From: Escherichia phage BP32
Strand: one strand, 5' to 3'
Length of the DNA: 64,000 nucleotides
Sequence record: OR906198.1
Below are positions 12,683-29,933 of the stretch, piece after piece. Below the pieces are notes generated by a model. The model was not told where the DNA came from and did no database searches. It saw nothing but the letters and a program-made list of their open reading frames with translations. Made by a program: the position numbers and the translations under genes. Numbering within the stretch: position 1 is the stretch's first letter; every line of letters starts with the position of its first letter.

Positions 12683-12714
12683 GTTTACATCCTTGTCATT
12701 CCATGGTACTATAC
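12683..12714 (+). promoter_or_regulatory. T4-early-like promoter (GTTTAC -35, tactatac -10 region)
   Basis: GTTTAC at 12683-12688 with A/T-rich upstream and -10-like element 18 nt downstream. Confidence 0.4.
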
Positions 12715-12755
12715 AACTATCGGCAATACTGCTGATGATTAAAGAGGAAAATAAT

Positions 12756-12983
12756 ATGGCTAAAGTTGATATTGACATCGTTGATTTTGAATATATTGAA
12801 GAAATTATTCGTAATCGTTATCCTGAACTTAGAATCACAAATGTACAAGATTCTAAGTTTTGGAGTATTCAAATCGTTATTGAAGGTCCTCTTGAAGACC
12901 TCACCCGCTTTATGGCTAATGAATATTGTGATGGTATGGATGCTGAAGACGTAGAATTTTACATGGGACTGATCGAACAATAA
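12756..12983 (+). CDS. Small early protein of unknown function (frd.x region)
   Basis: ATG at 12756 with AGAGGA 6 nt upstream; 75 aa. Confidence 0.55.
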
Positions 12984-13026
12984 TTATCAAGGGGCTGTCA
13001 AGTCCCTATCAAAATGAGGAAACATT

Positions 13027-13407
13027 ATGTATACTGGTAGAAAGTATGAACTTGTTCCAAGACTTATTGATACATTTATTAATTATAGCCCACGTTCTAA
13101 TTCATCAATAGTTAAAGCTATTCGAGATAATGGCGGATGGTTTGAAGTTAAAGAAGTTTCCGTCGCTAATGGATATAAAGCAGTAAAACACATTGAATGC
13201 GCAAATGGAAAACATTTTTACCTCAAAGATAGACTTTTAGAAATTTGTGAAGACGAATTTCATTGTTTTCGTGAGTATAAAGAACCGACTTCTGAAGAAG
13301 ATGAAGTCGAAGACAAGATTTCTGGCGTAACAAAAATTCACTGCATTGTTGACGAAAACAATGTAGATGAAATCATTGAACTTTTGCGAAAAACTTTCAA
13401 AAAGTAG
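13027..13407 (+). CDS. Hypothetical early protein (126 aa)
   Basis: ORF with GAGGA Shine-Dalgarno; packed in frd-upstream cluster. Confidence 0.6.
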   Translation: MYTGRKYELVPRLIDTFINYSPRSNSSIVKAIRDNGGWFEVKEVSVANGYKAVKHIECANGKHFYLKDRLLEICEDEFHCFREYKEPTSEEDEVEDKISGVTKIHCIVDENNVDEIIELLRKTFKK

Positions 13408-13436
13408 TTTACAGAAGGGTAGTAGTGTGATACTAT
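13407..13436 (+). promoter_or_regulatory. T4-early-like promoter (GTTTAC ... gatactat) bracketed by inverted repeat
   Basis: GTTTAC at 13407-13412, -10-like 18 nt downstream; agggtagta/tactattaccct imperfect inverted repeat around the -10. Confidence 0.4.
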
Positions 13437-13461
13437 TACCCTATCAACTAAGGAGAATAAA

Positions 13462-13704
13462 ATGAGATTACAACGTCAGAGCATTAAAGATTCAGAAGCT
13501 AGAGGTAAATGGTATTTTAATATCATCGGTAAAGATTCTGAACTTGTTGAAAAAGCTGAACAACTTTTACGTGATATGGGATGGGAAGATGAATGCGATG
13601 GATGCCCTCTTTATGAAGATGGAGAAAGCGCAGGATTCTGGATTTATCATTCTGACGTCGATCAGTTTAAAGCTGATTGGAAAATTGTGAAAAAGTCTGT
13701 TTGA
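13462..13704 (+). CDS. Hypothetical early protein (80 aa)
   Basis: ORF with AAGGAG Shine-Dalgarno. Confidence 0.6.
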   Translation: MRLQRQSIKDSEARGKWYFNIIGKDSELVEKAEQLLRDMGWEDECDGCPLYEDGESAGFWIYHSDVDQFKADWKIVKKSV

Positions 13705-13714
13705 GGAAAATATT

Positions 13715-14050
13715 ATGTCTGACATTCACGTAACTGGAATTGCCCAAGTAAACATCCGTTGCCAATTTAAAACTGTACCTGGGGTGACTCATATTACTTT
13801 ATCACACGACCCATATTCTCGTGGAAGACAGTTGACTGGTGCAATTAAGTTTTTCGGTGGAATTGGCGGAAACGAATTTACTATAGGCGATGACGAAATT
13901 GTTGGGTGTAAACTAAAAGTTCAAAAGGGCGTGTTAGAACTTTTTAGTGATGAAGTTTTTGATGAAATCTCACAAGCAGTTAATAAAGGAATGTTAACAT
14001 TAATTAAAATGATTAAAGCTAGTGGATATGTTCCCGATCCTTTATATTAG
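13715..14050 (+). CDS. Hypothetical early protein (111 aa)
   Basis: ORF with GAGGA Shine-Dalgarno, tightly packed. Confidence 0.6.
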   Translation: MSDIHVTGIAQVNIRCQFKTVPGVTHITLSHDPYSRGRQLTGAIKFFGGIGGNEFTIGDDEIVGCKLKVQKGVLELFSDEVFDEISQAVNKGMLTLIKMIKASGYVPDPLY

Positions 14051-14058
14051 GAGATAAT

Positions 14059-14301
14059 ATGATTTTTGTATTTGAATTTATGAATGATGAATTCGATTAT
14101 GCAATTTTTAACGCTTTGTATAATCCTGATTTAAATGAATTTAATGAAATGTTTTCTGACGCTTTGAGTATGTCAGAAGAATACTGTGGAGAATGTCAAC
14201 GTGTTTGTGTGACAGTCTTTGAAAACAAAGAAAAGACATATGAAGAATTATTCTTTGACGCTAATAAAGCCACTGAATGGTTTATTGAAAGGGGCTTTTA
14301 G
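14059..14301 (+). CDS. Hypothetical early protein (80 aa, acidic)
   Basis: ORF with AGGAG Shine-Dalgarno. Confidence 0.55.
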
Positions 14302-14303
14302 TA

Positions 14304-14885
14304 ATGATTAAATTGGTATTCGCTTATTCTCCAACTAAAACAGTCGAAGGCTTTAATGAATTAGCATTCGGTTTAGGTGATGGTTTACCATGGGGACGAG
14401 TTAAAAAGGACCTCCAGAATTTTAAAGCTCGCACTGAAGGCACAATTATGATTATGGGTGCTAAAACATTCCAGTCATTGCCTACATTACTTCCAGGTCG
14501 TAGACATATTGTAGTGTGTGACCTTGAACGTGATTATCCTGAAACTAAAGACGGTGATTTAGCACATTTCTATATTACATGGGAGCAGTACATAACTTAC
14601 ATTTCTGGCGGTTCAATTCAAGTGTCAAGCCCTAATGCACCATTCGAGGCTATGCTTGATCAGAATTCTAATGTAAGTGTAATTGGCGGACCCGCTCTGT
14701 TATATGCTGCATTACCTTATGCAGATGAAGTAGTTGTTTCTCGCATCGTTAAAAGGCATCGTGTTAATTCAACGGTTCAATTAGATGCAAGTTTTCTTGA
14801 TGATATAAGCAAGCGTGAAATGGTTGAAAGTCATTGGTATAAAATAGATGAAGTAACAACCCTTACGGAATCAGTGTATAAATGA
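14304..14885 (+). CDS. frd: Dihydrofolate reductase
   Basis: 193 aa, same length as T4 DHFR; directly upstream of td. Confidence 0.85.
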
Positions 14886-28381: not shown

Positions 28382-28410
28382 GGACTCCTTCGGGAGTCCT
28401 TTTTTATTTT
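28382..28410 (+). terminator. Rho-independent terminator
   Basis: ggactcc-ttcg-ggagtcc hairpin followed by TTTTTTATTTT. Confidence 0.8.
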
Positions 28411-28429
28411 CCAAAGATTGCATAAAGTT

Positions 28430-28462
28430 GTTTACAGTATAGTTCCTTTGTGATAGTATTAT
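28430..28462 (+). promoter_or_regulatory. T4-early-like promoter with tcctttgt/acaaagga inverted repeat around the -10
   Basis: GTTTAC 28430-28435; gatagtattat -10 region. Confidence 0.45.
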
Positions 28463-28486
28463 CTTACACAAACAAAGGAGAATAAA

Positions 28487-28819
28487 ATGAAAACGATTAA
28501 TCTGAACGCTACAGTTAAAACTAAATGCTTCAATGGTAAATATGATGAAACTATGTGGTTCTTAATGGCAGTTGAAGGTGATATTGTTGAAGTAGAAACA
28601 ACAGAAGGTATGGGAACAGATTTCACCTTTACAATTCAAGTTCATAATTTCTTTACTGGTTGGATTTATGAATTGAATACAGTAATCGTTGGAAAAATTG
28701 AACAAAATGAATTAGGTGAATGGTATTATGTTACAGCTCGCCAACGCGCAGAACGCTTAATTGAGAAGATGAAAAAAGTTGGTAAACTTGACATGCAACA
28801 TTGGAAAGTAGTAAAATAA
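28487..28819 (+). CDS. Hypothetical protein (110 aa)
   Basis: ORF with AAGGAG Shine-Dalgarno. Confidence 0.6.
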   Translation: MKTINLNATVKTKCFNGKYDETMWFLMAVEGDIVEVETTEGMGTDFTFTIQVHNFFTGWIYELNTVIVGKIEQNELGEWYYVTARQRAERLIEKMKKVGKLDMQHWKVVK

Positions 28820-28821
28820 TT

Positions 28822-28850
28822 GTTTACTTTGGTACAGGATATGATATTAT
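28822..28850 (+). promoter_or_regulatory. T4-early-like promoter with ggtacagg/cctgtacc inverted repeat around the -10
   Basis: GTTTAC 28822-28827, TATTAT 28845-28850, 17 nt spacer. Confidence 0.5.
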
Positions 28851-28887
28851 ATACCTGTACCGCAATTAAACATCTCGGAGAATAAAA

Positions 28888-29253
28888 ATGAACTACATCA
28901 ACTTTGAACGTAAATATGTTTCTAATGGTATTGCAGGTTCTATTGATACTATCTGCCTTTGGAAACATCAAAATGGATCAGTATGCGAAATTGAACAGTA
29001 TATGACTCCTAACTACGTTTATATGCGATTTGAAAATGGCATCACGGTTTCAATCACGATGGAAGGTTCCAACTTCAAAATTGCATTAGATGATGATTTC
29101 CGTCAACGTGATTTAGGTACTCATCCTTGCTGGAACGGTGATAATCGTAAACTTCTGGTTAAAACTTGGATTCGTCATATCCTGAGTAACCGAGCTAAAC
29201 CTGAACATCTCGAAGCAATCTTTGATGTAGTTCTTAACGAATTCGATATCTAA
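28888..29253 (+). CDS. Hypothetical protein (121 aa)
   Basis: ORF with GGAG Shine-Dalgarno. Confidence 0.6.
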   Translation: MNYINFERKYVSNGIAGSIDTICLWKHQNGSVCEIEQYMTPNYVYMRFENGITVSITMEGSNFKIALDDDFRQRDLGTHPCWNGDNRKLLVKTWIRHILSNRAKPEHLEAIFDVVLNEFDI

Positions 29254-29260
29254 TTTAACT

Positions 29261-29276
29261 GGGAGCTTCGGCTCCC
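29261..29276 (+). other. UUCG-loop hairpin gggagc-ttcg-gctccc (no U-run; likely RNA stability element)
   Basis: Perfect 6 bp stem between ORFs. Confidence 0.4.
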
Positions 29277-29288
29277 ACTGAGGAAATT

Positions 29289-29903
29289 ATGTTTAAAGTT
29301 AATACTTTTTATAAAATGAATTTTAAAAATGGGGATATTACTCCACGCCTTAAAAACATGTTCTCATATGACCTTATCGAGCCTTTTGAAGTTTTAGAAG
29401 TTACTGATGCCGGCTCGGTTTGTGAAATTAGAACTTCTGAAGGTAAAATTTATCAGGCAGGTGTTGGTAAATTCAGTAATTGTTTTACTTTAATATTCTC
29501 GACCGATTTAGATGAGCATTTTATTGAATGTCCTAACCCTAAGGTCCACGAAGTTCCACATCAAGAAACTAAGAAAAATGGCCCGCACGAATATACGAAG
29601 GTTGAAACTCCTCACGGCGTGATGTGGCGTCATAACTCTCCTTTTGGAAGTAAAGGAACATTTGCTCAACCGTCTAAACCGTATGATGATGAAAAATACA
29701 TCGTCGTCTTTTTATCTGAACAGGGTACTCAAGACCGTGGATGCCAACGAAGTGGTTTACTAAGTGAACTTGAAGCTCATAACCAAGCACGTGAATTCGT
29801 TGAGAAAAATCCTGGTTCTGAAGCTCTAGTCATGAAAGCAATTACTCAATATATCACTGCTCAACCTGTTGTTCATCCGGTAGAAATTAATTTCGTTAAG
29901 TAG
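29289..29903 (+). CDS. Hypothetical protein (204 aa)
   Basis: ORF with GAGGAAA Shine-Dalgarno. Confidence 0.6.
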   Translation: MFKVNTFYKMNFKNGDITPRLKNMFSYDLIEPFEVLEVTDAGSVCEIRTSEGKIYQAGVGKFSNCFTLIFSTDLDEHFIECPNPKVHEVPHQETKKNGPHEYTKVETPHGVMWRHNSPFGSKGTFAQPSKPYDDEKYIVVFLSEQGTQDRGCQRSGLLSELEAHNQAREFVEKNPGSEALVMKAITQYITAQPVVHPVEINFVK

Positions 29904-29933
29904 TTTACATCCAAGGACGGATTAGAGTATAAT
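29904..29933 (+). promoter_or_regulatory. T4-early-like promoter (GTTTAC ... TATAAT)
   Basis: GTTTAC 29904-29909, TATAAT 29928-29933, 18 nt spacer. Confidence 0.5.

Follow-up and report, generated by a model that had tools for sequence, protein, structure and literature searches.

Most early promoters of T4-type bacteriophages carry a short inverted repeat whose two arms bracket the −10 element, and this repeat is a property of the early promoters as a class. It was first noticed in a 64,000-nucleotide (nt) stretch of Escherichia phage BP32 (sequence record OR906198.1; this whole stretch is called the window, and positions count from its first letter), where the original prediction listed four promoter sites and both copies of a duplicated promoter cassette. 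The repeats probably encode stem-loops in sense-strand RNA that reads through the early promoter from an upstream start, although the particular physiological role of such stem-loops is less certain.

The window is from a Tequatrovirus, and many genomes of this group (T4-like phages that infect E. coli and Shigella) share ~96–97% identity with it. Early transcription runs along its + strand, which is equivalent to the minus strand of T4. Judging by the size and order of open reading frames (ORFs) relative to the T4 record, the window carries gene 32, frd.3-frd.1, frd, td, nrdA, nrdB, denA, rnlA, alc, pseT, cd, 31, rIII and 30.9-30.x. A spacing-constrained motif scan for GTTTAC-N15-19-TAnnnT, a check suggested along with the original prediction, returned 10 matches in the window versus 4.1 expected, nine of them on the + strand just 5′ of genes. 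These are T4-type early promoters. The consensus given for T4/PST early promoters is TTTACW-N17-TAYWAT (PMC4122927), and T4 early promoters are described as UP/−35/TGn/−10 promoters (PMC2988021); those of the window have the TGn element, an A/T-rich upstream region, and a Shine-Dalgarno sequence (SD) and ATG 20–45 nt downstream.

Six of the sites contain an inverted repeat of 6–9 base pairs (bp), with the 5′ arm in the spacer and the 3′ arm after the −10 element (Table 1). All six can be read directly from the sequence, each as GTTTAC, 17–18 nt and TAnnnT with the arms on either side of the −10 element, just as first reported. The reported arm length of 7–9 bp holds for most sites but not for 13407, where the arms given as agggtagta/tactattaccct are imperfect and the perfect repeat is only 6 bp (AGGGTA/TACCCT). 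Folded as RNA, the six sites are predicted to reach −12.1 to −24.8 kcal/mol (z = −2.2 to −5.9 versus dinucleotide shuffles), so the shuffled-sequence control refutes chance recurrence. The extent of the feature had been drawn less well: the interval 12683–29933 is bounded by two promoters, 12683 and 29903, that have no significant bracketing repeat, and it leaves out the cassette copy at 37778. Nor are the repeats local to this stretch, since they occur genome-wide in T4-type phages.

We compared each spacer (17 nt plus the first 3 nt of the −10 element) with the 43 nt downstream of its own promoter or of another promoter, using 5000 derangements. For the early promoters of the window (n = 8), the longest stem averaged 6.88 bp with the promoter's own partner and 5.12 bp with other partners, a difference that no derangement reached (0/5000). 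T4 promoters, for which the GenBank record has no features, were defined by pattern and SD-ATG context. Intergenic T4 early promoters (n = 36) gave a mean longest stem of 6.33 bp with their own partner and 4.69 bp with others (0/5000). Stems of at least 6 bp were present in 21 of the 36, versus 17.8% expected, and stems of at least 8 bp in 8 of the 36, versus 0.5% expected; the duplex energy was −12.9 kcal/mol with the own partner versus −8.1 kcal/mol with others (0/5000).

In contrast, T4 middle promoters showed no excess, whether all mapped promoters were taken (n = 55; 4.65 vs. 4.86 bp; 4780/5000; start sites from Table 1 of PMC2988021) or those just 5′ of a gene (n = 15; 4.93 vs. 4.97 bp; 3067/5000), and neither did T4 late-promoter motifs before genes (n = 20; 5.50 vs. 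5.24 bp; 1091/5000). The late-promoter screen recovered the known hairpin of gene e (T4 67018), and thus the method can detect such structures where they are present. Parallel-complement, direct and mirror symmetries of the same composition were all at the null, so that only inverted symmetry is enriched. It is this enrichment at early promoters, set against the null at middle and late promoters, that makes the repeat a class property. Chance matching in AT-rich sequence, for which it may be said that 6-bp matches are common (18–30% of spacers reach 6 bp with another promoter's downstream region), is rejected by all permutation, shuffle and symmetry controls and deserves practically no weight.

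The bracketing repeat recurs in five of the five other genera sampled. Across the whole Dhakavirus genome (n = 34), the mean stem was 6.59 bp with the own partner and 4.92 bp with others (0/5000), and 11 stems were at least 8 bp long versus 3.7% expected. Sampled loci of Mosigvirus, Gelderlandvirus S16 and Jiaodavirus gave 0/5000 each for both stem length and duplex energy, and Gaprivervirus, with only 10 exact-consensus promoters, gave 0/5000 on duplex energy and 20/5000 on stem length. This diversity was taken from GenBank phages; an IMG/VR scan with gp30.8 and a metagenome scan with a gp30.7 alignment returned 9 loci each.

Orthologous promoters in the six genera keep the pairing with different arm sequences. 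At alc, Tequatrovirus has the arms CCTCATGTT/AACATGAGG, Dhakavirus CTCCTCAT/ATGAGGAG, S16 CTCCGTTTAGTT/AACTAAACGGAG and Jiaodavirus TCCTCATCAG/CTGATGAGGA. All four have a 3′ arm that covers the SD, and the three orthologues from outside Tequatrovirus fold with z = −3.8 to −5.3. What is conserved at alc, as far as predicted folds tell, is that the spacer pairs with the SD region, rather than particular base pairs. The frd.1-type promoter has a stem at the same place but with different arms in four other genera (AAGGCT/AGCCTT, GATAGGGCT/AGTCCTATC, GGGTT/AACCC and GGAGCTAT/ATAGCTCC). The 28822-equivalent promoter, before 30.7, likewise has different arms before the same gene in S16 and Jiaodavirus.

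In an ungapped alignment of 12 distinct 24942-type sequences, 95.8% of cells are paired, versus 30–65% in slid controls; two pairs have had both bases substituted (A-U to G-C and G-C to A-U), several others switched from Watson-Crick to G·U, and 0/500 shuffles reached either the percentage paired or the covariation score. The motB-type promoter arms change from GGGACC/GGTCCC to GGGAGC/GCTCCT, relatives of the 28430 promoter have a T/C polymorphism beside the stem that toggles U·G and C-G, and relatives of 28822 have a longer stem (GGTACAGGT/ACCTGTACC), with a G·T wobble in one locus (L014). The orthologues and the 24942-type covariation support selection that would act on the structure and leave the arm sequences free, which agrees with the original prediction that the arms vary around a conserved geometry. 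Its suggestion of a common protein-binding site did not survive, as no arm sequence is shared between sites or between orthologues.

The mismatches within the stems indicate which strand folds. Counted once per promoter family in six genera, they comprise 13 G·T, 2 A·C and 4 others, whereas stems formed with unrelated partners contain 107 G·T, 119 A·C and 469 others (binomial test of G·T over A·C, P = 0.002). A G·T on the sense strand is an A·C on the other strand, and the G·T bias therefore argues for folding of the sense strand alone. Consistent with this, sense RNA is predicted to be 1.6 kcal/mol more stable than antisense RNA (n = 76, Wilcoxon p = 0.001), an asymmetry that shuffles do not show. 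If G·U pairs are allowed, the predicted stems extend through TGTG and the −10 element to 12–14 bp with loops of 3–4 nt. The perfect arms in DNA are 6–9 bp long and 12–25 nt apart, too short and too widely spaced for cruciform extrusion; together with the strand asymmetry of the internal mismatches (G·T 13 vs. A·C 2), this speaks against the cruciform that had been considered at first. The structure appears to be a fold of the sense strand, most likely as RNA.

A sigma-70 promoter starts transcription ~7 nt after the −10 element. The 5′ arm, between −35 and −10, lies upstream of the start placed in this way, and therefore the promoter's own transcript would lack it and the hairpin would exist only on read-through RNA. 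By the same geometry, a leader hairpin of the promoter's own RNA, another of the possibilities initially raised, is impossible. RNA that starts upstream and reads through is normal in T4 prereplicative transcription (PMC2988021).

The arrangement may follow from the way an early promoter is packed into ~60–70 bp between two genes. RNA polymerase would fix the UP element, the GTTTAC −35, the TGn and the −10 element, leaving two segments free to evolve, the 5′ part of the spacer (about −30 to −17) and the sequence between the −10 element and the SD. A hairpin built from these two segments would therefore hold the −10 element in its loop or inner stem.

Two geometries can be distinguished. In the first (21619, 28430 and 37778; ~30% of T4 early promoters), the SD lies within the 3′ arm. 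The ribosome-binding site would then be closed on read-through RNA, with those of alc and 30.8 open on their own RNA, and translation of the gene would be essentially confined to the first minutes of infection, when its own early promoter is active. Partition-function calculations of the probability that the SD is unpaired, on read-through RNA and on the predicted own transcript (Table 1), are consistent with such a switch at alc and 30.8, and 11 of 37 T4 early promoters, including that of regB, are predicted to switch SD exposure like these two. In the second geometry (13407, 24942 and 28822), the 3′ arm does not extend past the start site. The SD would stay open and the hairpin would be an intercistronic stem-loop, which might hinder RNA decay or processing or attenuate upstream transcription.

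Table 1. Early promoters of the window with and without an inverted repeat around the −10 element. SD-unpaired values are predicted probabilities.
Feature	Coordinates (strand)	Promoter elements and start codon	5′ arm	3′ arm	Position of 3′ arm or remark	RNA fold, kcal/mol	z	SD unpaired, read-through RNA	SD unpaired, own transcript
Early promoter of frd.1 homologue	13407..13464 (+)	−35 GTTTAC 13407-13412; −10 TACTAT 13431-13436; ATG 13462	AGGGTA 13416-13421	TACCCT 13437-13442	directly after −10, upstream of predicted start	−15.9	−3.4	0.82	0.96
Early promoter of alc, cassette copy 1	21619..21682 (+)	−10 TATAGT 21643-21648; ATG 21677	CCTCATGTT 21630-21638	AACATGAGG 21663-21671	SD GAGG inside 3′ arm	−24.8	−5.9	0.00	0.59
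Early promoter before 175-amino-acid ORF 25002-25529	24942..25004 (+)	−10 TATTAT 24966-24971	GGTAGAG 24953-24959	CTCTACC 24974-24980		−16.3	−3.9	0.86	0.88
Early promoter of 30.8	28430..28489 (+)	−10 TAGTAT 28454-28459; ATG 28487	TCCTTTGT 28444-28451	ACAAAGGA 28472-28479	overlaps SD AAGGAG	−12.1	−2.2	0.00	0.99
Early promoter of 30.7	28822..28890 (+)	17-nt spacer; −10 TATTAT 28845-28850; ATG 28888	GGTACAGG 28831-28838	CCTGTACC 28854-28861		−19.4	−4.8	0.72	0.56
alc-type cassette copy 2, before alt.-3 homologue	37778..37845 (+)	−10 TATAAT 37802-37807; ATG 37839	CCTCGTGTT 37789-37797 (one G·T pair)	AACATGAGG 37822-37830	SD inside 3′ arm	−21.4	−4.8	0.00	0.02
Contrast: early promoter 12683 with upstream intrinsic terminator 12633-12651	12633..12712 (+)				no repeat bracketing −10		−1.7		
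Early-type promoter	29903..29960 (+)	TATAAT 29928-29933			no significant bracketing repeat		0.07		
Early promoter of rnh homologue	9382..9445 (+)		AGATTT	AAATCT	weak repeat only		0.1		

Several points weigh against hairpins on read-through RNA that govern SD exposure. Start sites are placed by sigma-70 geometry and read-through is assumed from general knowledge of T4 (PMC2988021); from these we infer the read-through RNA, its folding in vivo and all functional consequences. About half of the hairpins make no contact with the SD. At 37778 the SD is predicted to be masked on the own transcript too, unlike in the alc copy, and the strong terminator 5′ of 28430 may let little read-through RNA reach the hairpin there. 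The Mosigvirus alc promoter, folded individually, has no SD-masking stem. The arms of the alc promoters shift register from genus to genus, and RNAalifold accordingly returned no shared structure when run on their MAFFT alignment; the alc orthologues were therefore folded one by one. The compensatory changes in the 24942-type alignment seem to trace to few independent events and count as supporting evidence rather than stand-alone proof. Finally, T4 contributes most of the energy difference between sense and antisense, which is close to zero in the small samples from four other genera, and G·T is the most stable mismatch in DNA as well, so that the hairpin may form in the non-template DNA strand.

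One alternative, which we consider unlikely, keeps the hairpin on read-through RNA but gives it the main task of stopping or attenuating upstream transcription, with SD masking incidental. Attenuation is the role that the authors of the work on stem-loops in the T4-type phages RB49 and phi1 proposed for them, and such a stem-loop placed before lacZ cut expression about as much as rrnB T1 (PMC2839356). T4 promoters with an upstream intrinsic terminator also tend to have weaker repeats (5.0 vs. 6.6 bp; −8.5 vs. −13.8 kcal/mol), but this trend is not significant (p = 0.13 and 0.25). No T-run follows any bracketing hairpin, the sequence after the 3′ arms being A-rich, and a terminator scan next to the promoters finds only 12633–12651 and 28380–28401. 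SD-covering arms have been re-created at alc in four genera, which points to the SD as the target.

A role in DNA, where the repeats would act as hairpins, cruciforms or homology patches for cassette recombination, or would modulate the promoter, is quite unlikely in our judgement. It accords with the duplication of the cassette at 21619 and 37778, with the different genes that the 24942 promoter drives in different phages (the junction lying just after the SD), with the loss of 30.8 and 30.7 at the 30.8 promoter in phage G8, and with the exchange and mini-circles reported for RB49/phi1-type cassettes (PMC2839356). Homologous recombination, however, needs shared promoter sequence and not arms that differ from site to site, and the arms make poor cruciforms. 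The mismatch spectrum is strand-asymmetric, the 5′ arm would be double-stranded in the open complex and so have no obvious route to an effect on the promoter, and the overlap with the SD is left unexplained.

Template-switch mutation, which perfects quasi-palindromes, is a classic mutational mechanism of T4. The repeats could then be a neutral by-product of it, or of inheritance within a family of duplicated cassettes: many T4 early promoters are paralogous cassettes, and template switching gives apparent compensatory changes without selection. We regard this as very improbable, since the test against other partners is conservative with respect to paralogy and still gave 0/5000, and middle and late promoters of the same genomes show no excess. 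Template switching would also yield perfect Watson-Crick pairs rather than a G·T bias, and the promoter of the same gene has unrelated arm sequences in different genera.

Folding of sense-strand read-through RNA has precedents on two sides. Among described entities, the promoters with bracketing repeats come closest to the promoter-early stem-loop (PeSL) cassettes of RB49 and phi1, in which early promoters are combined with stem-loops (Arbiol et al., 2010; PMC2839356). In those phages the stem-loop mostly lies between −35 and −10 or overlaps −10, G-T pairs are marked, and roles in termination and recombination were proposed (PMC2839356). Both systems are compact intergenic cassettes with an AT-rich region, a sigma-70-type early promoter, a stem-loop, an SD and a start codon, and both involve small genes of unknown function and cassette exchange; the window has the early promoter with SD and start codon, the stem-loop and the turnover of adjacent small genes. 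The PeSL subclass ‘between −35 and −10’ is matched by spacer-internal hairpins of T4 and Mosigvirus. These form a different subclass from the bracketing repeats: at T4 (AF158101) 2458 and 50973, the hairpin CCACA-AGGA-TGTGG lies wholly in the spacer and uses the extended −10 TGTGG, and related forms are found at T4 167086 (CCAC...GTGG with a longer loop) and Mosigvirus L029 12271 (ACACCA-AGGA-TGGTGT).

In T4/PST, by contrast, the name PeSL is given to an arrangement with the stem-loop immediately 5′ of the promoter (Comeau et al., 2014; PMC4122927, Fig. 3 legend). Stem-loops in that position correspond to the terminators at 12633 and 28380 and not to the −10-bracketing repeats, which are not described for T4/PST in that paper. 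The PeSL papers treat stem-loops as terminators or recombination sites, and chance statistics, covariation across genera, the contrast with middle and late promoters and SD masking are not part of them.

The second precedent is the SD-masking hairpins of T4 e, soc, 49 and I-TevI, which are relieved by an internal promoter (PMC3014915). In that design a long upstream transcript folds with its SD or AUG paired, while RNA started at the internal promoter has no 5′ arm and can be translated; alc (21619) and 30.8 (28430) are predicted to share exactly this geometry. In the known cases, late promoters delay translation to late infection, whereas here the promoter is early and would limit translation to the immediate-early phase. 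The internal promoters at 13407, 21619, 24942, 28430 and 28822 are of the sigma-70 early type, with a GTTTAC −35 and no TATAAATA late motif. As they are early and not late (gp55) promoters, they are a variant and not strict members of the e/soc/49/I-TevI type. That type also comprises a few special genes, compared with a predicted ~30% of early promoters here. We regard the bracketing repeats as a Tequatrovirus version of the PeSL concept joined to an internal-promoter SD switch, and not as a new category.

Two other assignments were rejected. The early promoters of coliphage N4 share with the present sites an inverted repeat integral to a phage early promoter, but theirs are hairpins with stems of 5–7 bp and 3-nt loops, which supercoiling extrudes from the DNA and which the virion RNA polymerase recognises (PMC4496689); here, the arms are 12–25 nt apart and differ from site to site, and the promoters consist of host-type elements. 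An intrinsic terminator would also be an intergenic sense-strand stem-loop, but there is no U-run, the inner stem is AU/GU-rich, the tails are A-rich, and the terminator scan lists none of the bracketing repeats. A full-text literature search for inverted repeats or dyad symmetry in T4 early promoters yielded only the PeSL papers and general reviews, and the older literature may hold a prior mention. The reviews of T4 transcription and post-transcriptional control that were consulted describe early promoters through RNA-polymerase recognition elements only and do not mention repeats in them. An Rfam search of window positions 9000–39000 gave no match.

Should most early promoters encode an RNA structure under selection, neither the spacer nor the region just after the −10 element would be neutral. 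With such a second layer of constraint, consensus logos and promoter-strength models would mix two kinds of constraint, and phage engineers who reuse early promoters would have to keep or remove the 5′ arm deliberately. The SD-covering subset would be a simple explanation for the brief synthesis of some immediate-early proteins, and the e/soc/49/I-TevI principle, so far known from a handful of late genes, would then apply to a whole class of early genes.

We put forward more tentatively, and with less than even confidence, that about one-third of immediate-early genes, including alc, whose product inhibits host transcription, and the ribonuclease gene regB, are translatable only from transcripts of their own promoters, which would amount to a genome-wide timing device of T-even phages. 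When early promoters go off at 2–3 min, synthesis would then stop even though middle-mode read-through RNA still covers these genes, and the remaining hairpins would insulate cistrons on long RNAs. Early shut-off, the mechanism of which is described as unknown (PMC2988021), would thus have a post-transcriptional component. It is still more speculative that the hairpin structure itself is the target of a putative shut-off factor.

Not every early promoter of the window has the repeat. The promoters at 12683 and 29903 have no significant bracketing repeat, the predicted structure at 12683 being located elsewhere, and that at 9382, before the rnh homologue, has a 6-bp repeat with a duplex energy of −4.3 kcal/mol and no significant bracketing. 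A strong intrinsic terminator, GGGGACC...GGTCCCC followed by T6 (12633–12651), stands immediately 5′ of the 12683 early promoter, and another, GAGGACTCC...GGAGTCCTT followed by a T-run (28380–28401), immediately 5′ of the 28430 promoter.

In the late-promoter control, repeats of 7–8 bp surround TATAAATA at T4 (AF158101) 116457, 45638 and 100610, besides gene e. The arms at 116457 (GCTCCTTTTATT/AATAAAGGAGC) cover an SD, the repeat at 45638 stands before I-TevII and that at 100610 before gene 19.

Elsewhere in the window, td (15076–15948) and nrdB (18822–20000) are single uninterrupted ORFs, and nrdB directly follows nrdA; this phage therefore lacks mobE, nrdB.1 and the group I introns of T4 (I-TevI, I-TevIII). 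A 204-amino-acid ORF (29289–29903) takes the place of T4 30.6 (95 amino acids). An ORF of identical length is found at the same position in a Mosigvirus locus (L029, 20276–20890).

Genes next to the promoters appear to have been exchanged. The 24942 promoter stands before the 175-amino-acid ORF in this phage and PP01, whereas in T4 and RB51 the gene behind it is cd.2. Over 25002–25529, the window diverges from T4 and RB51 right after the SD, and the insertion is common to PP01 and ESh29; it looks like a cassette exchange at the promoter. In phage vB_EcoM_G8 (L028, about 7116–7200), 30.8 and 30.7 are absent and the 30.8 promoter is retained, with a degraded 3′ arm (ACAAAAGAA) followed by a terminator-like GGGCTTCGGCCCC; this appears to be a deletion that ends in the promoter cassette.

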